From a virus, in IMG/VR virus record IMGVR_UViG_3300027708_000032, positions 1-64,000 of that record: DNA of 64,000 bases; one strand, written 5' to 3'. Shown here one piece after another: positions 1 to 32,605 of this stretch. A model generated the notes under the pieces. That model was not told the DNA's origin. It did no database searches and saw only the letters and a list, made by a program, of their open reading frames with translations. The number at the start of each line of letters is the position of its first letter. Position 1 is the first letter of the stretch. The translations under genes were made by a program, and so were the position numbers.

Positions 1-119
1 GCTTTTTTATCAGCAGCCATATCTTTTTTAGAACCTTCTTTACTATGAGATCCTTTAGCATCCATTTTTTTATCATAAGAAGATTTCTCATAAGCAGCCA
101 TTCCCATTTTCTTTTTCAT
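1..119 (-). CDS. small Lys-rich protein (runs off window start)
   Basis: Manual translation MKKKMGMAAYEKSSYDKKMDAKGSHSKEGSKKDMAADKK...; abuts the next ORF. Confidence 0.7.
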   Translation of the reverse strand, partial: MKKKMGMAAYEKSSYDKKMDAKGSHSKEGSKKDMAADKK

Positions 120-123
120 GTTA

Positions 124-273
124 TTATTTTTTAGATTTAGCTTTTATTTTACGTTCTTGTTTAAGCATTTCAGGAGTGGGCTTTTTACCAGAACCTTTAG
201 CAGCTCTGATGTTATCCCACAATCCACGTTGTGATGTAGACCCATCTTTACGCTTAATCATTTGTTTAGCCAT
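124..273 (-). CDS. small basic protein, 49 aa
   Basis: Manual translation MAKQMIKRKDGSTSQRGLWDNIRAAKGSGKKPTPEMLKQERKIKAKSKK; tightly packed in operon. Confidence 0.75.
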   Translation of the reverse strand: MAKQMIKRKDGSTSQRGLWDNIRAAKGSGKKPTPEMLKQERKIKAKSKK

Positions 274-284
274 TGTAATAATAT

Positions 285-1223
285 TTAATTAAAGTCTGCT
301 GTTATATCTACCCAACCATCAGCAACTATCCATTTCTTAAATGAACTTATAGTAATATATGGTAGGTAACCATCGTCTACATTTATAAATATTCCACTAC
401 AGAAGAATACATCTTTACTAAGACCACCTATAGCTTCTATACCTGTAGGTCCTGTTAAGAATGTTTCACCAGCAGCTCTTATTGTTTCTGTAGCAGCTAC
501 CATTCTTTCCCCTGTTGTTGTTAATGCAGCAAGAGCAGTTTTAGTAGGAAACAATATATCAGTTAAAAGAAACTGTTGGTAATCATTTTCTGGAAAAGCA
601 ACAGATGGAAATGTAGGAGCTGATCCATTTGCTAACACCCATGTAACAGCTGCAAGTACAGCACCACATGAAGTGTTTTGTCCTGTCTGTCCTCTTCTAA
701 TTATAGAACCTACAGTACCATTACTAGATATACCAATATGTGGCATATTAAAAACAAATAAATGTCCTGTATCTGTAATGTGACTAGCATAAGCACCAAG
801 TCCAGTAATACCTGTATGAGGATAACCAGCTAAACCACCAGACATAAACGGTCCTAAAAAATTATTTAGTGATAAAGGATGTTGTCCTAAATTATCTACA
901 TTTAAAAAATTAGGAGCATTAACATCATCTGCACAAACTGATAAAGACATTAATGTATTATCAGGATTGTATCCTAAACCTTTTAAAAATCTTTTTATTT
1001 TTAAACCCATATCCTGAGCATATATTGCATTAGGATATACAGCATTAACTCTATCTGTATAAATGAATGGGTTATTATAATACTTGGCCTCATTCATCAC
1101 CTCTATCCAATCTCCAGTTTTTGGTGCCTTGTATGCAAATGTTAAAGAACCAGCTACTACAGCACCATCTGGTGTACGCAATACATAAGGTTTCTTGGGT
1201 TTGTTATTTCCGTTTCTAAACAT
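285..1223 (-). CDS. LCIB/LCIC-family (theta-type, beta-like) carbonic anhydrase with N-terminal extension
   Basis: Motifs SVCADDVN, GPFMSGGLAGYPHTGITGLGAYASH, PHIGIS...RRGQ, SCGA give the Cys/His/Cys Zn ligands of the LCIB family. Confidence 0.85.
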   Translation of the reverse strand: MFRNGNNKPKKPYVLRTPDGAVVAGSLTFAYKAPKTGDWIEVMNEAKYYNNPFIYTDRVNAVYPNAIYAQDMGLKIKRFLKGLGYNPDNTLMSLSVCADDVNAPNFLNVDNLGQHPLSLNNFLGPFMSGGLAGYPHTGITGLGAYASHITDTGHLFVFNMPHIGISSNGTVGSIIRRGQTGQNTSCGAVLAAVTWVLANGSAPTFPSVAFPENDYQQFLLTDILFPTKTALAALTTTGERMVAATETIRAAGETFLTGPTGIEAIGGLSKDVFFCSGIFINVDDGYLPYITISSFKKWIVADGWVDITADFN

Positions 1224-1224
1224 T

Positions 1225-1461
1225 TTATTTCTTTTTATAGGGGTTATCTTTATGCCATTTCTTAGTAGCAGCTACACCTTGTTTAACAGTTTTAGCTTTA
1301 GCTTTTTCTGTAAGATCTATAGTATCCCATTTACCTTTATCTGTAGATGGATGGTTTACCATAATATGACCTTGTTTACCTTTACCTATTCCTGTTGCAC
1401 TAGTCTTTTTATATATAACATGCTTCTCACCACCAGCTGAAACTTTAACCTTCTTAGCCAT
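1225..1461 (-). CDS. small basic protein, 78 aa
   Basis: ORF track; Lys-rich; directly adjacent to neighbours. Confidence 0.75.
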   Translation of the reverse strand: MAKKVKVSAGGEKHVIYKKTSATGIGKGKQGHIMVNHPSTDKGKWDTIDLTEKAKAKTVKQGVAATKKWHKDNPYKKK

Positions 1462-1462
1462 A

Positions 1463-1603
1463 CTATTTATTTTTAGCCATTTTTTTAAATGTCATAGCAA
1501 GAGCTTTTCTCTTGGGCGTACATGTGGCTTTAGTCATAGGAGTGCAATATCCTTTATGTGCTGGATTAACTGCTTTTTGTATCCACTTCTTATCTTTTGC
1601 CAT
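1463..1603 (-). CDS. small basic protein, 46 aa
   Basis: Manual translation MAKDKKWIQKAVNPAHKGYCTPMTKATCTPKRKALAMTFKKMAKNK; TAATG coupling with upstream ORF. Confidence 0.75.
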   Translation of the reverse strand: MAKDKKWIQKAVNPAHKGYCTPMTKATCTPKRKALAMTFKKMAKNK

Positions 1604-1770
1604 TATTTCTTTTTATTAAACTTATTAGCAAATTTCTTTTCTGCTCCTAGTTTCATAAAAGCAGCTTTACTATCAGCCTTACCTTTCATATAAGACTGGA
1701 TACCTTTATCTCCACAACCAGTACATGGTTGTTTCTTAGATGCTCCTCTTGTATTTGACTTAGCTTTCAT
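1603..1770 (-). CDS. small basic protein, 55 aa, with CxxC
   Basis: Manual translation MKAKSNTRGASKKQPCTGCGDKGIQSYMKGKADSKAAFMKLGAEKKFANKFNKKK. Confidence 0.7.
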   Translation of the reverse strand: MKAKSNTRGASKKQPCTGCGDKGIQSYMKGKADSKAAFMKLGAEKKFANKFNKKK

Positions 1771-1781
1771 TATTTATAATT

Positions 1782-2798
1782 TTACATGTTCCAATACTGT
1801 TCTACCTTCTTAGTAAGATCCATAAGAATCTCTTCATTTAAAGGGTTCTTAAGATATTCCAATACATCTGTAGCTGTTCTTCCCATTAGTACGCTCTTCT
1901 CAATATGCCAAATAAAACCATCAGCTTTAGTGGCAATTAACTTATAATAGTTACTATCTTTTACAATAGCTCTAATCTTAAGTGTTTCCATATCAAGATT
2001 AACGGCATCCAAAAACTTCTGTCCTGTTCTGCGTTTATCTTTATCTACAGACTCTCCGTTAATAAATTTATCCATGTTATCATAGATAATATCATTAGGT
2101 GTAGATTTCTTGTACTGGGTGCTATTAACATCTAGCACTTTAGCTATATAGAATAACTTGTTTTGGTTCTTATCAAATAACTTCTGAAGTTCTGAAAGAG
2201 CTTTATTTCTAAGCTTCTTAACTTCTGTATTAAGAGATGCTGTCTCTTCTATTCTATCTAAATAGAATTTTGTAGGTGTAGGTTTACTACGAGCTTCTTC
2301 TAAAGATCTAGATACTAATGAAAAACCACCAGCTTCTATAGCATATAATCTAATAAGATCATATGGATCTTTTTCTGGATCTAAATGTAATGGAGCATTA
2401 CTACATCTAACTTTAATTTTATCCCAGAACTCTCCATTATCATGTCTAAGTAGTTTTATTTTATTCCAAAACTCTTTATCTTCTGGATCTACTACATTAC
2501 CTGCAAGTTCCTTTTCAAGCTGTGCTACTATAGTTCTAATCTGTTTAATCTTAGCTTCTTGCTCTTCTAAAGGAAGACTTTTAACTTCTGGAGCAAACTC
2601 GTTCAAGCCTGTCAAATATCTTTTTATTCCGTTAATCTCTAAACAAGCTATACTTTCTTCATGAAAAGCTCCGTCAAAAAGACTAAGTCCATACTTCTGA
2701 AGTCCCATGTTTTCTACAGCAGCATCAAAATAAGGACGAATAGCTATTGTTGACTTTTTGTTTTGTGGGTATTTCTCCACCATTACTAAGTTACTCAT
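1782..2798 (-). CDS. conserved crAss-like protein downstream of MCP (putative virion protein)
   Basis: 338 aa; position in the crAss-like head module. Confidence 0.55.
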   Translation of the reverse strand: MSNLVMVEKYPQNKKSTIAIRPYFDAAVENMGLQKYGLSLFDGAFHEESIACLEINGIKRYLTGLNEFAPEVKSLPLEEQEAKIKQIRTIVAQLEKELAGNVVDPEDKEFWNKIKLLRHDNGEFWDKIKVRCSNAPLHLDPEKDPYDLIRLYAIEAGGFSLVSRSLEEARSKPTPTKFYLDRIEETASLNTEVKKLRNKALSELQKLFDKNQNKLFYIAKVLDVNSTQYKKSTPNDIIYDNMDKFINGESVDKDKRRTGQKFLDAVNLDMETLKIRAIVKDSNYYKLIATKADGFIWHIEKSVLMGRTATDVLEYLKNPLNEEILMDLTKKVEQYWNM

Positions 2799-2865
2799 GT
2801 TTGGTTTTTGGTTTTTTATATATAGATTATCGGAAATACTCCGATAATAGTCTAACTATTTTACA

Positions 2866-3208: not shown

Positions 3209-4828
3209 TTAGAATGAACCACCAGTAACTGGGTTTCTCATAACGATCTTCAACACTTTGGTTGGATCTTTAACCCAGATAGCAGGCATTGTTTGTGTCA
3301 TGAACACACGGTATCCATTAAAGTTTCCAGAAGACTGGAACCCTTGAGTTCTACCCATGTAATCCATAGTACCATTTTGATAGAACCACTTTAATTGATT
3401 ATCCCAAGATAACTTCAATAAGAAGATGTTATCGTTAGTATTATCAGTGATATCAAAAATGATAAAGTTGTAAGAAGATAATGGGAAACCATCAATGATT
3501 GGGTTCTCAATATCATTAGTGTGGATGTTATCAAACGCTGGGTTCAACACAAACTTAACGTTAGCCAAGAACGGAATAACGTAGCTAGTGTATGCAAATC
3601 CAAAGTTTAGATCCATGCCTTTACCAGTTACAGCTCCAAGCTCATGAGCATTAAGAACTAAACCAGAGTTAACTGCCTCTTTCTTAATAGCCTCGTTAAC
3701 AAGCTTCATACCACCCATACCTGTTTGAACAATCAAAGAACGGTTAGGCTCTGGTCCTTGGAACTCCACACGACCATTGAAGAAGTTAAAGATTTCAGAT
3801 TTAAACAAGTCTAAGTTAAATGAACCACGGTTGTAAATTCTCTTGTAAGAATTATCCAACTGCTTCCAAAGACCTACAGACAAACGGATATCATCTGGAC
3901 CATCTTGCTTAATACGTCCACCTTGTCCCCACATTAAGTAGGTCTCAATGTCATTAGCAATCTTAGTCAAGTGAGCTGCTTCTAAAGTAGTCAAGAATGA
4001 ACGTGACAACTGACCATTAGCATAAGCCTTCTTAACATAGTCTTTACCCATCTTCTCAGCCATTGTTTCCAAGTTGGTGATAGAAGGATCAAGAGTTTTG
4101 TCAAAGTTTCTCCACATTTCTACTACTGGTACAGTACCATCAGCTTTCATACCACCCTTCATCATCAAGTCAGCACGACTAGAGATAGAATAGTGTACGT
4201 GAGCTTCTGCTCCTCCTACATAGTTGTAGAACTCACGGAAACCAGCAGATACATTACCAATGTCAGAAAAACGCTCACCATACTCTCCACGAGCCGAACC
4301 TTTACGGAACAACTTGGTACCAGTAGTGATGTAAGCATTAGATAAAAACTTGTTGTTATCATTATTAACCAACTGAACAGTGTAGATGAAACCATCACCA
4401 GCTGGAATAACATCATCAGCAGTAACGTACATTTCCACACCATTGTACTTATCATAAGTGATGATATCACCATGACCAAAGTAACGTTTGTTAATCTTGA
4501 TCTTAAAAGTTTGACCGTCAATACCTTTTGTAGCATTGCCTGACTCAATATCTTCTAAGAAATAAGGAAGATCCTGAGCTACAGGAATCTGCCATTTGTA
4601 CTCTCCACGAGCGTTATCTACCATGATAACGTTCTTACCACCAAAAGATGACATTTGGTACAAAGGCATTTCTACTTTTTGTGCCATTGCCCAAAGATCC
4701 ACTGGACCTAAATCTGTAGGCTCAGCTGATTTAAGGAGGTTAGAAAGGTGGTAAGAGTCTACGTGCGAACTAGTCTGATAGTTATTATCACGCAGGAATA
4801 TACCATTGTTTAAAACTGGGGTTGCCAT
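3209..4828 (-). CDS. major capsid protein (crAss-like)
   Basis: 539 aa; position in TerL-portal-X-MCP order; high-expression codon bias; crAss-type MCP segments (LMWGQGG, GLWKQL, C-terminal IWVKDPTK). Confidence 0.85.
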   Translation of the reverse strand: MATPVLNNGIFLRDNNYQTSSHVDSYHLSNLLKSAEPTDLGPVDLWAMAQKVEMPLYQMSSFGGKNVIMVDNARGEYKWQIPVAQDLPYFLEDIESGNATKGIDGQTFKIKINKRYFGHGDIITYDKYNGVEMYVTADDVIPAGDGFIYTVQLVNNDNNKFLSNAYITTGTKLFRKGSARGEYGERFSDIGNVSAGFREFYNYVGGAEAHVHYSISSRADLMMKGGMKADGTVPVVEMWRNFDKTLDPSITNLETMAEKMGKDYVKKAYANGQLSRSFLTTLEAAHLTKIANDIETYLMWGQGGRIKQDGPDDIRLSVGLWKQLDNSYKRIYNRGSFNLDLFKSEIFNFFNGRVEFQGPEPNRSLIVQTGMGGMKLVNEAIKKEAVNSGLVLNAHELGAVTGKGMDLNFGFAYTSYVIPFLANVKFVLNPAFDNIHTNDIENPIIDGFPLSSYNFIIFDITDNTNDNIFLLKLSWDNQLKWFYQNGTMDYMGRTQGFQSSGNFNGYRVFMTQTMPAIWVKDPTKVLKIVMRNPVTGGSF

Positions 4829-6216: not shown

Positions 6217-8967
6217 TTATTTCTTTTTTTCCGCTGGCTTCTTTACGTCATACTTATTTTTATTTTCTCTAGCAATCTGTAATTGCTTATCAGCTATTTC
6301 TTTTTGTGTCTGAAGTCTACGTTCTTCTACATTAAGCTTTTGCTGAGTCATCATGGTCTTATTAGTTTCCTGATCTCTTTTAAGATTCATTTGATCTTGG
6401 TGTTGTTGATCAGCTCTAATATTTTCTAAAGCATCCATATAGTCAGACTGCTTATTTTCATTAATATCTACAGTGGAACCATAGCCAGCTGCTTTAATTT
6501 GTGCTTCTTCTATCTTAGCATCTCTATCTTTCTGGTTTTCCTCAGCTTCAAACTGTTGAGCCATCTGCATTTGTTGTTGCTGAGCCTGAAGCTGTTCTTG
6601 TTGCATCTGCTGCTGTTGCTGCATTTCAGCTTGTTTCTGAGCCTGCATTTTTTCTTCAGACTTCTTAAGAACACCAGTAAGTTCAGCAATACTCTCAGAC
6701 TTAATAACATTACCAAGATCATATATAGAAGCACCCATTGTGTTATTCTGTATAGCCAATTGCTTTAGTTGTTCTAATATAGCTCTAGAATTAGTCTTAG
6801 TGGTGCAGAATATATTAAGATCTCTCATCAAAAGATCTGTACCATTCATCTGAAAGTTTACTTTTTCGTCTGTACTTGTAATATACTGAAGACGCACACT
6901 AGGTTTTGTAGAATGATAATACTGAGCCAAGTCAGTACGCATCTGATGTACGCGAGGCATTAGGTTGTCACTATGCTGTACAAAGTATTGTTCTGTCTGA
7001 GCATAAGAAGCTGTCATAGCTTGTTCTATACCAGTGGCTGTTTGTTGTTGAGCAATAGGCTGACCCATACGTTGTTGATTAAGTCCTATTACAGCAAAAG
7101 CTTCATTCTTAAAATAGTTAGCCAACTGTATTCTAGACATTAAACGTTGTGTCTGTTCTAGATTTAACACTTGATAGTGTTGGAAAGATAGAGGATTTTC
7201 AGTGTTAGTAATAGTGGTATCCAATGGTAACATCTGAAAGTTCTTCATGGCTACATATGCCTTAGATAGATTGTTCTTTCCCCAATCTTCTCCTAATGAG
7301 TGACGTGGTAGGGCATTCTGATCTAACATGATAACAGTACCTAATTCATCTACTAAGATGTCAGCTATCTGATTATTTACAATATTATAACCAATCTGAA
7401 ATGGTTTCATTAAATCTACTAAACTTACTGATCTAGTATTTCTATCTCCAAATATACATCCCTCTACAGGAAGTTTACATCCATATATAGTGGAATCTCC
7501 TTTAAACTGAAAAGGTACACGTCCTGGTTTACCACCTTGTAAACCAAGATATATAGGATTGATACCTCCTGGATTATTCATACCCCAGAATGCAGGTCTG
7601 TTAGGACCAATTTTAATTCCACCCCAGGTTTCATTAATCCATATCCAATCTATATGCTCACCAAACATAAGATTGTCTTTTGTTTTCTGTTTGTAAACTA
7701 CAGTGTTATACTGAGGAGCATCTGTTACTTTATAAGTTTCATCTACAATATCTTGTACAAGATCTCCGTCTTGAGTTATTTTAGTAAGATGGCCCACCTT
7801 TCTTTGACTCTTCCAATAAATTGTAGAAACACGTAACATGTATGACTTACCAAAATCTTGAAGATCTTCAGAGTCTGATAAAATCCATTGTACAATATCT
7901 CCGAACTGAGATCCAGCATCGTACAAAGAAGTAAACTGTCTATAAGCCAACGAAGGCATTTGTGTGTTCCATTCATGAGATCTAGTTGGGTCATAGTATG
8001 TACCATCATTTTGGTATCCTTGTATTGCATATCCTGCAGATCTAGCTGGATATATAGCTTCTAAAGCTTCCAACTGATCTTGGTTCATCATCCAACCAAA
8101 CTTATCTATAACATCTGATATAGACATCATATCCATTTTACCCACCCAGTTACCCTGAGATACATAACGAATGTCTGGAGATTTATGATAAAATGTAAGT
8201 AGAGGATTCCAAAGTTCCACCTCATAATCATCTTCTTTCATATCAAAATGCCAGAACTCTCTGTCTGTAATAAGCATATCTCTAAATGCTCTTTCCTCTA
8301 ACTCTTGCATTTTAAATCTTTCCTCATCTACAGTTTTTTGATGAGCAGCCCACTCTTCTATCATAGAACGATAATCTTTTTTAAAGAATTGTTCTAATTC
8401 TGGAAGTTGTTTTATAGCATCAGGAGACATAGCTTTTTGAGCTTCTTCTGATTTAATATCTTGACCTTGATCAATAAGCTGTATTCCTATTTTTCTTTCT
8501 GCATCTTTAACTAAAATGTCTTCTAACATCTTACGTTTCTCTTCCAACATCTCATTATAAGAAGTGTCATCAGTAGCTCTAAACATAATTTTAGAAGTAC
8601 GTTTAGAAAACTCATTTGTAAGAACATTAACTACACTTGGAATAATAGGATAGAACTTAAGCTCAAATGCTGATACGTCTTCTTTTGTAAGAGTGTCAAT
8701 AAGATCTGCCATTTCATTATCTTCCTCTACAATATAATCCTGTTTGTCTATAATACCTTTAGCTAGTTTATAGTTCTTCATCAAACGTCTAGCGTTTCTT
8801 CTTAACTGTTTCATTCCCTGAAACTCTAACCAATCAAGATTCCAAGCTCTCCACTCTTCATCTTTTTCTTTTTCTGATACAAACTGAAAAGGCTGTATAA
8901 GAGTACCCATCTTGTTGTACTCCACCTTGGCTCCTTTCTTAAGTTGTAGGGCGTTATATATCTGCAT
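6217..8967 (-). CDS. portal protein (crAss-like)
   Basis: 916 aa downstream of TerL; SLVDLMKPFQIGYNIV motif; Gln-rich coiled-coil C-terminus. Confidence 0.85.
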   Translation of the reverse strand: MQIYNALQLKKGAKVEYNKMGTLIQPFQFVSEKEKDEEWRAWNLDWLEFQGMKQLRRNARRLMKNYKLAKGIIDKQDYIVEEDNEMADLIDTLTKEDVSAFELKFYPIIPSVVNVLTNEFSKRTSKIMFRATDDTSYNEMLEEKRKMLEDILVKDAERKIGIQLIDQGQDIKSEEAQKAMSPDAIKQLPELEQFFKKDYRSMIEEWAAHQKTVDEERFKMQELEERAFRDMLITDREFWHFDMKEDDYEVELWNPLLTFYHKSPDIRYVSQGNWVGKMDMMSISDVIDKFGWMMNQDQLEALEAIYPARSAGYAIQGYQNDGTYYDPTRSHEWNTQMPSLAYRQFTSLYDAGSQFGDIVQWILSDSEDLQDFGKSYMLRVSTIYWKSQRKVGHLTKITQDGDLVQDIVDETYKVTDAPQYNTVVYKQKTKDNLMFGEHIDWIWINETWGGIKIGPNRPAFWGMNNPGGINPIYLGLQGGKPGRVPFQFKGDSTIYGCKLPVEGCIFGDRNTRSVSLVDLMKPFQIGYNIVNNQIADILVDELGTVIMLDQNALPRHSLGEDWGKNNLSKAYVAMKNFQMLPLDTTITNTENPLSFQHYQVLNLEQTQRLMSRIQLANYFKNEAFAVIGLNQQRMGQPIAQQQTATGIEQAMTASYAQTEQYFVQHSDNLMPRVHQMRTDLAQYYHSTKPSVRLQYITSTDEKVNFQMNGTDLLMRDLNIFCTTKTNSRAILEQLKQLAIQNNTMGASIYDLGNVIKSESIAELTGVLKKSEEKMQAQKQAEMQQQQQMQQEQLQAQQQQMQMAQQFEAEENQKDRDAKIEEAQIKAAGYGSTVDINENKQSDYMDALENIRADQQHQDQMNLKRDQETNKTMMTQQKLNVEERRLQTQKEIADKQLQIARENKNKYDVKKPAEKKK

Positions 8968-9087: not shown

Positions 9088-11292
9088 TTATCTCATGTTT
9101 TTAAATGCGTTACGAGAAGGTCTCATAAGACCATTACTTTTGGTAGAACTACCAATATGCCTAAATGGGCTATAGTTTAATTTACTAAATTTTTGGGAGT
9201 TAACCAAATTATCCTTCTTAACTTCTATACGTTTAGCTAGTCCTCTATTAGATTGTTGTACCTTGGCAAATGCTATAAGAGAACAGAATGCCACAAGTCT
9301 ATCCACGTTTAGTCCATCTCTGTATGCCTGCATCTCTTTAAGTAACATAACATCAGGTATACGCTGTACGCCATATATAGTTTTAACTATAGTTCCATCT
9401 GGTAAAGTTTCAGTGTCAAGCTCTTCTTGTAAAAACTCAATACCATATGATAGAATAGTACCCTTAAATAATGTACCTACGTTCTTCCAACCATACTGCT
9501 GAAATACATTTCTGTTTGCTCCTATGTCCTTGAGAAACAATATCATATCTTTTGGTACCAAATATTTCTGTCTCTTTCTAGATATCATGTATTGTATAAA
9601 CAAAGCTACGTTATTCTCCACTATAGTCCAGGCATTATACCATTCTATGAGTAGCTCTAGTCTTTCATGTGTTTTATTAATATCATCAAACCTACCACAC
9701 CATGAAGCAACTATAGCATCACGTTCTATTGTATTCTTCACCTTACCATCCCCATCATCCTGTATAATCTCCACTGGGTTTTTATATACGTATATAGAAC
9801 ATAATGAGTCTGATGTAGTAGTCTTACCCTCGCCTACGGGATCCACAGAAGCATAGTACATACCAAACGTAGGATCTTTGTGTGGTCTTTCATATACACA
9901 TATCACACCTTCTTTATCTTCTGTCTTCTTAGATATAGGAAATTCCATAATAGGAATCTTTCTAGATGGTTTGTCTATTATTTTACCCTCAGCATTTCTA
10001 CTAAGTTCTAAATATTCTACAGGATATTCTTTCTCTGCTATCCTTTGCATCTGTTTAGAAACAAGATGTGGAGGAAATACACTCACCTTTCTAGTAGCAA
10101 AAGCTTCTTCTATAGTACGTGGATGCTGAGATATGGTGAGCTGATACGCAGCTGGGTCCATATTCTTTTTAGCTTTCTCAAACTCTTCATCAAGAGCAGT
10201 TAAAGCTTCTTCCACTTTAGAGTTACCATAGTTGTCTATATATGGTGGCATAGACCACTGCTCAGGAATAAATAGTCCTGTCACACCAACACTACCATCT
10301 TTGTCTAACAGATTAGATGGCACACCATAAAAACCATTCTCTTCTGGCTGTAGTATATATTCTTTAAGAGGTTCACACTGATCAAGATCACCCACAGAAC
10401 CAGCAGCTATAAACTGTCCTGTAATCATATGACCAGATTTAAGAGCTGGTTTCATAAACCCATAAGTGTCATTCATCTTAGGAGCAATACCACCCTCTTC
10501 ATGAAAGAAATATGTTACGGGACCACCAACACCATTAGTTGGATCTTTTTCAAATGAATAAGATGATATGTTACTCTTAAGTCCTCTATATGTATCACGA
10601 TTATTTATTCTCACTTTAATACGCTGCATCCAAGCTCCCACCTTATCTGGTTCACTAGGTCTATACCAAGCAGTGTGTTCATTTAAAAAGTTCTTATATT
10701 CATCTAAGAACTTCCAGGATCCTTTCTCATTAATATAATCTTTCAAACTAGCTCCTATCTTTAACACGGCACCTTCTTCAAACCAATACTGGTTTATAAG
10801 CTTACCCATATGAAAATAAGAAGAAGCTATCTGACGTTTCTTTAAAATTACAGCATGCTTCCAATGTAGTTCTGCCAAGTGTTCATATAGAGCCATGTGA
10901 TATTGTGCATCTCTCACCTTAGCAAAGTCAAACCTCTTTTCTTCCTTATCATAAATAGGAAGAAAGTTAAGCCACATGTAATAGTCTCTACTAAGAAACC
11001 ATGACTTATCATTGTTCTTAATAATTACACCCTTACGACATTTATTCTTTTGATCATCCCAATAAGCTATAAAGTCTTTAGTTTTTACAGGAGCATCACA
11101 GTAATACTTTTGTTTCTGAAACTTTCTAGCCTCAGCATTAAATATTAAAGAACTTTCGTCAAACTCATACTTCCCTGGTTCTTTAAATATAGATAATAGA
11201 AAGTCTCTGAACTCTTCCCTTGTTTGAAACTCAGTAGTAGTCCAGAGACCATTCTCGTATGTAGGAACCTCTATAAAATTATTACTCAACAT
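9088..11292 (-). CDS. terL: terminase large subunit
   Basis: Walker A variant LKKRQIASS; Walker B FFHEEGG; RNase H-like YASVDPVGEG, IVENN, NVDRLVA. Confidence 0.9.
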   Translation of the reverse strand: MLSNNFIEVPTYENGLWTTTEFQTREEFRDFLLSIFKEPGKYEFDESSLIFNAEARKFQKQKYYCDAPVKTKDFIAYWDDQKNKCRKGVIIKNNDKSWFLSRDYYMWLNFLPIYDKEEKRFDFAKVRDAQYHMALYEHLAELHWKHAVILKKRQIASSYFHMGKLINQYWFEEGAVLKIGASLKDYINEKGSWKFLDEYKNFLNEHTAWYRPSEPDKVGAWMQRIKVRINNRDTYRGLKSNISSYSFEKDPTNGVGGPVTYFFHEEGGIAPKMNDTYGFMKPALKSGHMITGQFIAAGSVGDLDQCEPLKEYILQPEENGFYGVPSNLLDKDGSVGVTGLFIPEQWSMPPYIDNYGNSKVEEALTALDEEFEKAKKNMDPAAYQLTISQHPRTIEEAFATRKVSVFPPHLVSKQMQRIAEKEYPVEYLELSRNAEGKIIDKPSRKIPIMEFPISKKTEDKEGVICVYERPHKDPTFGMYYASVDPVGEGKTTTSDSLCSIYVYKNPVEIIQDDGDGKVKNTIERDAIVASWCGRFDDINKTHERLELLIEWYNAWTIVENNVALFIQYMISRKRQKYLVPKDMILFLKDIGANRNVFQQYGWKNVGTLFKGTILSYGIEFLQEELDTETLPDGTIVKTIYGVQRIPDVMLLKEMQAYRDGLNVDRLVAFCSLIAFAKVQQSNRGLAKRIEVKKDNLVNSQKFSKLNYSPFRHIGSSTKSNGLMRPSRNAFKNMR

Positions 11293-12351
11293 TTATTTTT
11301 TAAAATACTCCACCCAAATATTTTCAGCCTTTTGAGAATGTTTAACCAATCCCTTAAAATTAACTTCAACATTTCTTCTAGGCACTCTGTATGTTTTATT
11401 CAATACGTCTGTTATATCTGATGTATCATTAGGATCAGCAGTGTATACATTACCTAACCATTGTATTTCAGAAGTACCAATTGTTGGTACACCTTGGCTA
11501 ACAAGATCAGCACACACTATATTAAATGTTTCTGAAAATGAACATTGCATACCTAAGTCCATGGTTCCACATAAAGCTACAAATTCTTCTTTGGTATACC
11601 AAGAATGTTCTACAAGTCTATGTCCTTTGTCTTTAATAGACTCAAAAAAGTTTTGTATATTTCTAAGAACAGCTTCACCTCTTTGTTCCACTCTAGATGA
11701 GTTAATATGAAACACCACTTTCTTCTTAGCCTTTTCTGCAAACATCACTGCAGCAACTGCTTGTGTAAGCTGATTTTTCATAGGACGTATAGCTCCAAAA
11801 CAAGCAACGTTTATTTCATCAGATGAGAATGTATAATCTTTTTTAGGAAGAGTGGTGGTTGGATAGTAGTTAGGAAGATAGACAAGATTATCATCTACCA
11901 CATCATCTTCTATGTCTTGTTTATGTCTAAGTATAAATGCAAGTTCTCTAAATAATCTTTTAGAGTTTACAATAACCATTACATTAGGATTCTCTATATA
12001 TGCAGCAATCCACTCCATGGCCACACCTTCATTAGCTAAGAATGGTAGGTCACTATGTAAATGTACATACCATTTAATAGTAGGGTGAATAGTAGATAGT
12101 TGTTTAAACTTTACAGGCACAACCCACAATGCTTCTATAATAACATCTGTTGGTTTATATTCTGTAACTTCTTTATTTATACTATTATTATCTTTTACTA
12201 CAACAAGCTTAGCTTCTATGCCATTTTTATTTAGCATATCTACCACGTACTGCGTAGAGTTAAGAAGTCCTGTTGCAAAGTTCACCTGACCAGTGGTGGT
12301 ATCAGATCCATAGTCAAATCTTTCTTTCAGAATAAATAAAATCTTTTTCAT
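11293..12351 (-). CDS. GT-B fold glycosyltransferase (GT4-like)
   Basis: FGAIRPMKNQ and SFSETFNIVCADLVSQGVPTI motifs. Confidence 0.75.
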   Translation of the reverse strand: MKKILFILKERFDYGSDTTTGQVNFATGLLNSTQYVVDMLNKNGIEAKLVVVKDNNSINKEVTEYKPTDVIIEALWVVPVKFKQLSTIHPTIKWYVHLHSDLPFLANEGVAMEWIAAYIENPNVMVIVNSKRLFRELAFILRHKQDIEDDVVDDNLVYLPNYYPTTTLPKKDYTFSSDEINVACFGAIRPMKNQLTQAVAAVMFAEKAKKKVVFHINSSRVEQRGEAVLRNIQNFFESIKDKGHRLVEHSWYTKEEFVALCGTMDLGMQCSFSETFNIVCADLVSQGVPTIGTSEIQWLGNVYTADPNDTSDITDVLNKTYRVPRRNVEVNFKGLVKHSQKAENIWVEYFKK

Positions 12352-12884: not shown

Positions 12885-13109
12885 TTATTTACTATTACGT
12901 AATAAATCTCTGCTAGATCTCTTGCCCATATTCTTAAGAAGCATTTGGTTCTTAAGTTCATGGTCATGTATCCAGCTTACTATGTTTTTATATTTGTGTG
13001 CTTCTGTCATATAATACTTACGAGCTGAGTTTCCCACTTCTATTTTACCAGCTTCAAATTCATTCAGAAGTTCTTCTAATGTTGGAATATTATTTTTTTG
13101 AATATTCAT
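12885..13109 (-). CDS. hypothetical protein
   Basis: ORF track; packed in operon. Confidence 0.55.
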   Translation of the reverse strand: MNIQKNNIPTLEELLNEFEAGKIEVGNSARKYYMTEAHKYKNIVSWIHDHELKNQMLLKNMGKRSSRDLLRNSK

Positions 13110-13743
13110 ATTCTAATATTTTACCTACTAAATCTGATCTATGATTATGCTTAAGTTTTATCCATTTAATCTCTTCTATTTTTTTAGATAGGTCTATAAT
13201 ATAAGATAAGCCATTATATGGATCTTTTATATCTTTTTGTTCATTATCTCCATTAATAATTATTCTTCCTGATCTCCCCAGACGGGTGAGAATAGCCAAC
13301 ATCTCAGCTTTAGTAAGATTTTGTGCTTCTTCAACGATAAGAATATCATCAACCGTTTTGCCCCTGATAAACTGTACAGGAAGAGCAACCACTTTTTTAT
13401 CAAGAATAATCTGTTGAATTTTAACTTTGTCATAGCACTTAATTAAGTTTTCCTGAAATGCTTCTAGATAAGGATCAAACTTATCATTTAAACTACCAGG
13501 TAGAAAACCTAAACTATGTCCCACCTCAACTGCTGCTCTTGTAACTAATATTTGACTATACTCTTTTTTAAAGAGGAAATCTAGTGCACATTGTGCAGAC
13601 ACCAAACTTTTACCACAACCAGCTCTACCAGTGATAACAACAATCTGATTATCGAGGATGAGTCGTTTAACTTCCTTTTGTTCGTCATTAAGCTGTATAT
13701 TATATTTAATATCATTCTTAAGAACTTTTTTTTCTTTTTCCAT
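13090..13743 (-). CDS. phoH: PhoH-family ATPase
   Basis: GRAGCGKS Walker A, LGFLPG, FIRGKT, EEAQN, LTRLG, GDNEQKD, RSDLV. Confidence 0.92.
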   Translation of the reverse strand: MEKEKKVLKNDIKYNIQLNDEQKEVKRLILDNQIVVITGRAGCGKSLVSAQCALDFLFKKEYSQILVTRAAVEVGHSLGFLPGSLNDKFDPYLEAFQENLIKCYDKVKIQQIILDKKVVALPVQFIRGKTVDDILIVEEAQNLTKAEMLAILTRLGRSGRIIINGDNEQKDIKDPYNGLSYIIDLSKKIEEIKWIKLKHNHRSDLVGKILEYEYSKK

Positions 13744-16942: not shown

Positions 16943-17380
16943 TTAACACCAATTTGTTCCATTTATAACTCCATTAGTAACCTCACCACCAGTTAATCCA
17001 AGCTTAGTTAAATAGAATATACCATCTTCTAACACTATATGACCCATACCACCTAGTCTAGTGTTAAGAGCATTTAATAATGCACCTATAGTGTTATCTG
17101 CATTAAGTGGAGCAATAGCTGTACTAAAAGTTAAACTGGTACCTCCTAGGCTTCCATCAAAATTAGTATCTATTGTAAGTTCTATGTTATCTGCATTTAC
17201 TAAAGTGTTCATCTTTGCACCACCTCTTACAGATAATGCACCTTGTGCAGTTAGTGCGTATTTAATATTAGTGGGAACATTAAAATTTATATACTCACCT
17301 ACAGCAGGTTTCTTCTCTACTATAGAAGCACCCACTACAGGCTTAGCTCCTTTGCTCTTTTTTACAAAAAATGTTTTCAT
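16943..17380 (-). CDS. putative virion/decoration protein
   Basis: Gly/Thr/Asn-rich; own late-type motif and terminator; N-terminus resembles that of the LCIB protein. Confidence 0.5.
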   Translation of the reverse strand: MKTFFVKKSKGAKPVVGASIVEKKPAVGEYINFNVPTNIKYALTAQGALSVRGGAKMNTLVNADNIELTIDTNFDGSLGGTSLTFSTAIAPLNADNTIGALLNALNTRLGGMGHIVLEDGIFYLTKLGLTGGEVTNGVINGTNWC

Positions 17381-32232: not shown

Positions 32233-32242
32233 AAATCTTATT

Positions 32243-32315
32243 AGTCAGGTAGCTCCAACTCTTAGAGCCTTTGCTTGTAGCAGAGAGTGTGTGGGTGAAA
32301 ATCCCACCCTGACTG
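32243..32315 (+). tRNA. degenerate tRNA, anticodon TGT (Thr)
   Basis: AGTCAGG TA GCTC..GAGC CTTTG-CTTGTAG-CAGAG AGTGT GTGGG-TGAAAAT-CCCAC CCTGACT G; no CCA; N26 missing. Confidence 0.65.
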
Positions 32316-32605
32316 ATTTTTTATATCTTTAACATCAGCTTAAACCTGACATATAACCTATGAAACATCTATTAATATTTCTTAGAATTACAGAAGACAA
32401 TGACTTTTACCACTTAGATGAGGGACTTACAAGAGTACCTTATTTTATAGCTGGAATATTTTTCATACTACTAATACTACGTCTAGTTGAAAATAAGAAA
32501 TAAAATAATATGTTGGTACATGGTGTTTATACATAGAATAGTCTATGTTAAGGATTCTGCTATACATCAATATATAAAACAAGAATATTGTAACCATTGT
32601 AATTT

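Follow-up and report, generated by a model that had tools for sequence, protein, structure and literature searches.

The window analyzed here, a stretch of 64,000 nt, comprises positions 1 to 64,000 of the IMG/VR virus record IMGVR_UViG_3300027708_000032 and is the first half of one 128,065-bp contig (G+C 33.9%) from a lake-water phage related to the crAss group. Near its left end the minus strand carries the gene that is our subject, an open reading frame (ORF) for a carbonic anhydrase homologue of the LCIB/theta type, in which a catalytic domain is preceded by a short N-terminal module that we call the handle. The contig ends repeat over 129 nt and are near identical there (window 1–129 versus contig 127936–128065); the genome is therefore circular or terminally redundant, with a length of about 127.9 kb. 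A long co-oriented block on the minus strand runs from the terminase through the capsid gene to the LCIB gene (Table 1).

Table 1. Features of the late gene block and of the LCIB protein, with window positions; counts of relatives refer to the 80 LCIB loci described in the text (AF2, AlphaFold2; aa, amino acids)
Feature	Position	Strand	Remarks
Start of 100-aa lysine-rich ORF	3-119	minus	continues at the other contig end, 127752-128054
Tiny basic ORF, 49 aa, directly downstream of LCIB	124-273	minus	relatives beside LCIB in 27/80 loci; no Pfam/PHROG match
LCIB/theta-type carbonic anhydrase gene, 312 aa	285-1223	minus	open ORF, ATG start
LCIB_C_CA catalytic domain, residues 69-296	336-1019	minus	Pfam envelope
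N-terminal handle, residues about 10-42	1098-1196	minus	three short beta strands in AF2 model
Tiny basic ORF, 78 aa, directly upstream of LCIB	1225-1461	minus	relatives in 22/80 loci; no Pfam/PHROG match
Tiny basic ORF, 46 aa	1463-1603	minus	relatives in 27/80 loci
Tiny basic ORF, 55 aa	1603-1770	minus	no relative in the 80 loci by BLASTP at E 1e-3
Conserved 338-aa late protein (p338), upstream edge of variable slot	1782-2798	minus	no family match above threshold
Hairpin, 10-bp stem with 5 G-C pairs, T-rich tail	2951-2976	minus	after capsid gene and its 47-aa follower
47-aa ORF		minus	directly follows capsid gene
Major capsid protein, crAss type	3209-4828	minus	Pfam PF23898 Crass_capsid, E 5.8e-31; phrog_11589
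416-aa protein		minus	between portal and major capsid gene in block order
Portal	6217-8967	minus	
Large terminase	9088-11292	minus	
145-aa protein	16943-17380	minus	N-terminus weakly resembles handle

The LCIB gene lies 1 nt from the stop of ORF 1225–1461 and 11 nt from the start of ORF 124–273; the adjoining ORFs are tiny and lysine-rich, and the capsid gene is 2 kb upstream. This is what the initial annotation, made from the sequence without database searches, had described: a gene co-oriented in the late head block among tiny basic ORFs. Past the contig junction come two more basic ORFs and a 232-aa protein (p232) whose match to virion structural proteins is weak; a Dps-like protein and other late genes follow. 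The nearest cultured relatives of the capsid protein are distant, Leptolyngbya phage Lbo-JY46 (27%) being followed by crAss-like and Cellulophaga phages. From its position in a late-operon slot downstream of the capsid gene it follows that LCIB should be made together with the virion proteins. The strong hairpin in Table 1 is a possible attenuator that could lower read-through from the capsid gene into this slot; terminator-like sites were not above chance in the region (3 found versus 2.6 expected from shuffles).

The Pfam family PF18599 (LCIB_C_CA) matched the protein with an E-value of 9.3e-40 and 136.7 bits (cut-off 25), with residues 69–296 on profile positions 4–220 of 223. It was the only family reported; no Pro_CA profile appeared in the Pfam scan at E up to 1. 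PF18599 is the theta class of carbonic anhydrases (PMC8119650). Among solved structures the sequence relatives were 6kfs (E 5e-24), 9vzj, PtLCIB4 (5b5y) and Chlamydomonas LCIB and LCIC. When aligned by phmmer with the chains 6kfs and 9vzj, five site residues fell on identical residues: Cys97, Asp99, His162, Arg176 and Cys186, whose codons were read in the DNA at 933–935, 927–929, 738–740, 696–698 and 666–668, respectively. All five are invariant in 81 of 81 sequences (the window protein and 80 phage homologues of 40–72% identity). The Asp and the Arg near the presumed ligands and many glycine and proline positions of the pocket are likewise invariant across these sequences, and in every one the first Cys is followed by Ser or Ala (Ala in the window protein).

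An AlphaFold2 (AF2) model built from 20 sequences had a predicted local distance difference test score (pLDDT) of 76.5. In a Foldseek search of the PDB its eight best matches were all LCIB-family chains, with template modelling (TM) scores of 0.69–0.83 (target-normalised); the best of them was PtLCIB4 (E 3e-14, TM 0.82). The earlier call of an LCIB-type carbonic anhydrase homologue with intact catalytic residues was thus confirmed. The conserved pocket argues for a working CO2-hydrating zinc enzyme: binding of zinc by the LCIB protein is very probable, and interconversion of CO2 and bicarbonate is probable.

Several known proteins are close enough for comparison. The diatom proteins PtLCIB4 and PtLCIB3 (Phaeodactylum tricornutum, 5b5y) belong to the same Pfam family, include the best structural match, and have Cys, Asp, His, Arg and Cys at positions that align with those of the phage protein; PtLCIB4 also has a small residue after the first Cys. 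However, identity to the phage protein is only about 25%, and the phage has an N-terminal handle instead of plastid targeting; it is a virus of bacteria, for which no link to a CO2-concentrating mechanism is known. Chlamydomonas LCIB and LCIC (5k5w, 5b5x) share the fold and the site but are farther from the phage protein (E 1e-10, TM 0.69–0.77), and they are pyrenoid-associated algal proteins. The bacterial single-domain LCIB_C_CA proteins (6kfs, a ‘CCM related protein’; 9vzj; and proteins of Pirellulales and Acidobacteriota metagenome-assembled genomes, MAGs) provide the best sequence matches with solved structures, yet they are without a handle and about 230–280 aa long. Canonical beta-carbonic anhydrases (Pro_CA; E. 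coli Can/CynT, H. influenzae HICA) use the same kind of Cys/His/Cys zinc site and have the same superfold (Foldseek E 3e-3 to 0.1, TM about 0.45), but differ in details of topology, and the phage protein has a long C-terminal half.

A large protein search gave 261 matches to the LCIB protein; the best 120 all carry PF18599, and many are full-length proteins from contigs of 115–127 kb. Identity of the full-length relatives among the matches listed ranged from 96% to 41%. Such relatives on ∼125 kb contigs suggested that LCIB might be a core gene of the phage family, an idea rejected by a scan seeded with the capsid gene. At least 596 viral contigs proved to have a close capsid gene, and the best 80 loci (capsid 80–94% identical) were compared. 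Three of these 80 capsid-nearest loci have LCIB; both flanking genes, p338 and p232, are present in 54, of which only two have it. In 24 of the 54 spanning loci p338 and p232 are no more than 100 bp apart; the slot between them spans 11 bp to 4.9 kb and is filled by varying small and medium-sized lysine-rich proteins, which may be internal or DNA-associated virion proteins. Many of the slot proteins have repeated Met-Lys-Lys-Gly-Gly-like motifs, and none has a Pfam match. On the contig analyzed here the slot region lies at window 1–2800 and contig 126800–128054, minus strand.

A contig from a DNA run (X2) joins position 104 to 1466, skipping the 49-aa ORF, LCIB and the 78-aa ORF; word depth was 34 for this contig versus about 6 for the LCIB-bearing form. 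Caution is needed with this joint, since it comes from a related strain with 90% likeness and its shorter side has only 42 letters. Where capsid proteins are 92–93% identical the LCIB proteins are 62–72% identical; LCIB evolves faster than the capsid gene. Rather than a core gene, LCIB is an optional cassette, and the late-operon slot that holds it is hypervariable. The proposed location inside the capsid operon is therefore right as to position in the late block and wrong as to a fixed part of the operon, given the 2/54 count and the variant that skips the gene.

A scan of IMG/VR with the family alignment matched 142 contigs, and 80 LCIB loci were examined. In 26 of the 80 there is a crAss-type capsid block, and LCIB lies, as in the window, between the capsid gene plus p338 on one side and the gene with the weak virion-structural match on the other; the rest belong to other phages. 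In one of these (L048) LCIB stands between the major head protein (phrog_138) and the head-tail adaptor (phrog_211), after the head maturation protease. In another (L029) it directly follows a collagen-like tail-fibre gene, with an endolysin nearby. Placement of LCIB in virion gene blocks thus recurs on three backbones (the crAss type, L048 and L029), though it is not universal. In L060 a virion structural protein is encoded 2 kb upstream, with nucleases in between.

What precedes the catalytic domain varies among the 80 loci. Most (54) have a short handle as in the window protein. A beta-rich module of ∼85 aa was found in 11, a helical, charged N-terminus in five, an N-terminus of ∼90 aa, which occurs on a neighbouring small ORF too, in another five, a module of ∼140 aa in three and a 776-aa fusion in two. 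Phage LCIB domains therefore carry at least six different N-terminal modules. Pfam reported nothing besides the LCIB domain for 10 proteins of variant architecture. PHROGs gave no match for eight proteins (LCIB proteins of other architectures or handle-bearing ORFs) and one neighbour gene, the sole exception being a marginal match (E 0.0084) of the 776-aa fusion to a family of unknown function. Some of the N-termini may be fibre-like or Ig-like. In this fusion (L028:9632-11962; L035) the LCIB domain occupies residues 149–364, between a ∼125-aa N-terminus and a C-terminal part of ∼400 aa, neither with a Pfam match; its gene comes after a 516-aa ORF without a PHROG match.

Eight loci, all in the groups with a helical or large N-terminal module, have a second LCIB gene directly downstream of the first (L036, at 9617–11683, L037, L045, L046, L050, L060, L076 and L077); they belong to large phages, with contigs of up to 217 kb. 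The five site residues are kept in all eight second copies. These tandem pairs recall the LCIB–LCIC hetero-complex of Chlamydomonas.

In the AF2 model the handle forms strands at residues 11–16, 28–30 and 38–41 with pLDDT of about 80. With E 0.01 as the limit, a hidden Markov model (HMM) of the LCIB N-termini found 75 ORFs across the 80 loci, and 21 of these are not LCIB genes (E 2e-7 to 5e-23; 80–627 aa). These 21 ORFs are all in 16 loci of the non-crAss group; several have long poly-Thr tracts, and one has two handles. Occurrence on 21 non-LCIB ORFs makes the handle a genuine portable module, in agreement with the initial annotation, which had set apart a stretch of ∼45 aa at the N-terminus. 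In the crAss-type set the catalytic domain has a mean identity of 59%, the handle one of 48% and the linker one of 33%. Two of the handle-bearing non-LCIB ORFs, tried in PHROGs, had no match, and a protein Atlas search with residues 1–52 gave no usable match.

The initial annotation had also compared the N-terminus with that of the late protein encoded at 16943–17380 and proposed an anchor shared by the two. BLASTP of the LCIB protein against this 145-aa product gave no N-terminal match, the best E-value being 1.0 and elsewhere in the protein. Two handle HMMs ranked the product second of 463 with E 1.4 and ninth of 753 with E 3.5, neither of which is significant. In profile–profile comparison handle residues 12–42 aligned with residues 4–33 of the product with a score of 21.6. 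The score was reached in none of 300 whole-alignment column shuffles and in none of 300 shuffles of the first 45 columns of the 16943–17380 protein (maxima of the two controls 16.8 and 16.3). The aligned stretches coincide exactly with those pointed out in the initial annotation, and the likeness is above chance though weak. The proposal of a shared anchor draws mainly on the 21 handle-bearing ORFs of related phages; likeness to the 16943–17380 product is only weakly supported.

The family of the 16943–17380 protein comprised 17 proteins in the large protein search, the query included, with a highly conserved N-terminus; no relatives were found in viral contigs or in five related phage records (two of them at least 90% complete). 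AF2 modelled the N-terminus of this family with low confidence (pLDDT about 48–51), and its confidently modelled C-terminal domain had no BFVD match at E 0.001 or better.

The LCIB family was matched by 979 cluster representatives at E 0.001 or better. We built a tree of 174 rows: 34 phage-locus domains, taken from one to nine loci of each architecture, and 140 of 150 cluster representatives, the other 10 being left out since their best domain spanned less than 150 profile positions. All 34 phage-locus rows fall into one clade of 57 rows, together with 23 unlabelled representatives, with support of 100 in the Shimodaira–Hasegawa-like approximate likelihood ratio test. The stem of this clade, 1.38 substitutions per site, sets it apart from bacterial and algal forms. 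Because of this long stem the phage LCIB is not a recent copy of a host gene. Closest outside the clade are single-domain proteins of 234–312 aa, two of which have names, from Pirellulales and Acidobacteriota MAGs; eukaryotic multi-domain LCIBs (pelagophyte, diplonemid) are farther away, their high whole-protein scores being due to tandem domains. Such chains have two or three LCIB domains in tandem (1013 aa in a diplonemid transcript, 539 aa in a pelagophyte protein). A scan of genome contigs with phage-type motifs returned one MAG contig of 1.6 kb, which says little on cellular relatives.

Within the phage clade the crAss-type LCIBs do not form one group: three changes are needed, at least two of them forced by starred branches, a pattern that points to exchange of LCIB genes among phage lineages. 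Transfers of this sort, together with the high plasticity of the slot and the finding of handle-bearing partner proteins only in other lineages, are what one would see if LCIB were a recent passenger without a role, moved along with shuffling tiny-ORF cassettes and keeping its handle as a leftover from a donor phage. Yet the gene is intact, its full-length relatives on many contigs of 115–127 kb extend from 96% to 41% identity, its catalytic residues are invariant, and the handle of the crAss-type proteins is better conserved than their linker; identical contigs are found in an RNA library as well, without proof of transcription. Because of the strict conservation we regard a passenger as very improbable.

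The same conservation makes a non-catalytic use of the fold less likely. Here the zinc site would be structural or would bind CO2, bicarbonate or another ligand, and the protein would be a structural, sensing or receptor-binding part; a comparable case is the non-catalytic barrier role proposed for Chlamydomonas LCIB/LCIC. Those two proteins were inactive in vitro despite an intact site (PMC5876011), and for this reason activity is not readable from the sequence. The long stem of the phage clade would allow functional change, the domain is fused within the 776-aa protein, and the tandem paralogues of large phages recall the LCIB–LCIC pair. Against such a use stand the invariance, across the 81 sequences, of the Asp, the Arg and many pocket glycine and proline positions, and the Ser or Ala that always follows the first Cys. 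An Arg at that place reportedly inactivates PtLCIB4; the structure of the S47R mutant itself was seen among our PDB matches. PtLCIB3/4 are reported to be constitutively active (PMC9614477). On balance, a non-catalytic role seems to us unlikely, if less so than a passenger.

Repeated exchange of N-terminal modules on one catalytic clade, taken with placement among virion genes, points to a tethered enzyme. We propose, with a probability of roughly 0.4, that the LCIB gene encodes a late, tethered and probably active phage carbonic anhydrase, for which the virus particle would be the most likely tether target. Within the beta-type zinc carbonic anhydrases the enzyme would belong to the LCIB/theta group, as a member adapted to phages; its catalytic domain is part of a single clade that has spread among unrelated phages and become joined to at least six N-terminal modules. 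The ∼40-aa, three-strand handle, which related phages also put on poly-threonine and other proteins, would be the tether. The particle is plausibly the most economical target. Carried on its surface, or enclosed along with the small basic proteins and brought in at infection, the enzyme could influence CO2, bicarbonate and pH from the outset, either at the surface of the host or inside it. That the phage theta-type clade generally is a virion-borne enzyme, held by interchangeable anchors or packed and injected and altering CO2, bicarbonate or pH of the host envelope or cytoplasm at infection, is a more doubtful proposition.

Some observations weigh against the tethered-enzyme proposal. The Cys/His/Cys residues are presumed zinc ligands, by analogy with LCIB structures, and the inactivity of the Chlamydomonas proteins bears on catalysis. 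The handle has no known partner, and handle HMMs found no other significant match among all ORFs of the 128-kb genome; the profile–profile match to the 16943–17380 protein is weak (P 0.0018, probability 14.8%). LCIB had no match in 50,697 deposited cultured-phage records and no family in PHROGs. Occurrence is patchy (2/54), and in one large phage (L036, on a 203-kb contig) the LCIB pair has as its neighbours not virion genes but those for a dCMP deaminase, an RNA ligase, an HNH endonuclease and an ATPase.

The last two points also fit a competing explanation, an auxiliary metabolic gene whose product works in the cytoplasm. Made late, and soluble or self-associating, the carbonic anhydrase would trap respiratory CO2 as bicarbonate, which would feed carbamoyl-phosphate and purine synthesis, acetyl-CoA carboxylase or anaplerosis, or would buffer pH; this would be useful in CO2-poor lake water, and the handle would serve oligomerisation or an intracellular target and not the virion. 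Bacteria need carbonic anhydrase to grow in air, as is known from E. coli can mutants. The gene has properties expected of auxiliary metabolic genes: cellular homologues, patchy presence among related phages and strictly kept catalytic residues. Its patchiness is moron-like, with 2/54 relatives and the DNA-run variant that skips 105–1465; an accessory part of the virion could be just as patchy as a metabolic moron. Bicarbonate supply has some support from the large-phage LCIBs located next to dCMP deaminase and RNA ligase, and freshwater and lake metagenomes from 14 studies contain the sequence. On the other hand, six N-terminal modules swapped on one clade would be unusual for a soluble metabolic enzyme, the gene recurs in virion gene blocks on three backbones, and late timing is a poor match for nucleotide supply; the MAG labels of relatives are scattered over many phyla. 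We consider the cytoplasmic auxiliary gene nearly as likely as the tethered enzyme.

The stretch was found, whole or in part, in the runs of those 14 studies, and contigs of a lake metatranscriptome library (X5) identical to the window cover positions 294–527 and 766–1047 of the LCIB gene as well as parts of its neighbours. Such contigs indicate presence in the library, where DNA may be included, and not transcription; parts left uncovered carry no meaning. An attempt to infer the host from the MAG labels of 17 capsid-bearing loci (L163–L179) was abandoned: the labels came from many phyla (among them Fluviibacter, Micavibrio, Clostridium, Rickettsiales, Campylobacteraceae, Chitinophagaceae and Patescibacteria), with four names of Bacteroidota type. 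They most probably reflect binning error and are unsuitable as hosts.

LCIB/theta carbonic anhydrases are known from algal CO2-concentrating mechanisms and a few bacterial structures. Our full-text literature search found no paper linking LCIB or PF18599 with phages, in line with the initial annotation, whose author was aware of no characterisation in phages. What is new is the occurrence in a crAss-like lineage, as an accessory cassette in a hyperplastic slot, of a member of a single phage clade with a portable handle. Tethering to the virion would have a working analogy in the T4-like hyperplastic internal-protein locus, where variable small basic proteins are encoded among head genes, and in Hoc-like Ig domains and fibre adaptor modules, by which virions display varied cargo through a common anchor; the phage LCIB locus has no sequence relation to either. 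Alpha, beta and gamma carbonic anhydrases have been described in freshwater sponge viromes and read as auxiliary genes (bioRxiv 10.64898/2026.01.21.700432). As in the window phage, the enzyme there is on freshwater phage or virus contigs, but the accessible portion of that preprint mentions neither the LCIB/theta type nor handles nor placement in a virion operon.

The phage LCIB proteins are a distinct, widespread clade found over unrelated backbones with exchangeable N-terminal modules, and the phage family carrying the gene is very common in lakes, judging by the at least 596 contigs with a close capsid gene. If active and particle-borne, they would be a new class of virion enzyme and would give lake viruses a new route to touch inorganic-carbon chemistry; if acting inside the cell, LCIB would add to the auxiliary genes a new one that affects the inorganic carbon of lakes. 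With its 312 aa the protein is small and offers a ready assay, and the handle/cargo system is open to pull-down or co-folding.

Other genes of the contig gave a few further matches. Upstream of the terminase the minus strand has a weak glycosyltransferase-like match and a PhoH-like ATPase (11293–12351 and 13090–13743), and a single tRNA-Thr (TGT) is located at 32242–32316 in the plus-strand block. An 82-aa basic ORF (contig 127500–127748, minus strand) corresponds to the C-terminal end of eight PHROG families whose function is unknown, e.g. positions 849–928 of 928 in phrog_3477 (E 7e-38); what stands alone here is therefore a C-terminal module widespread in phages. The Dps/ferritin-like protein (contig 126333–126794, minus strand; phrog_858, E 3e-21) is encoded by a gene kept in the late block across the phage family, including relatives without LCIB.

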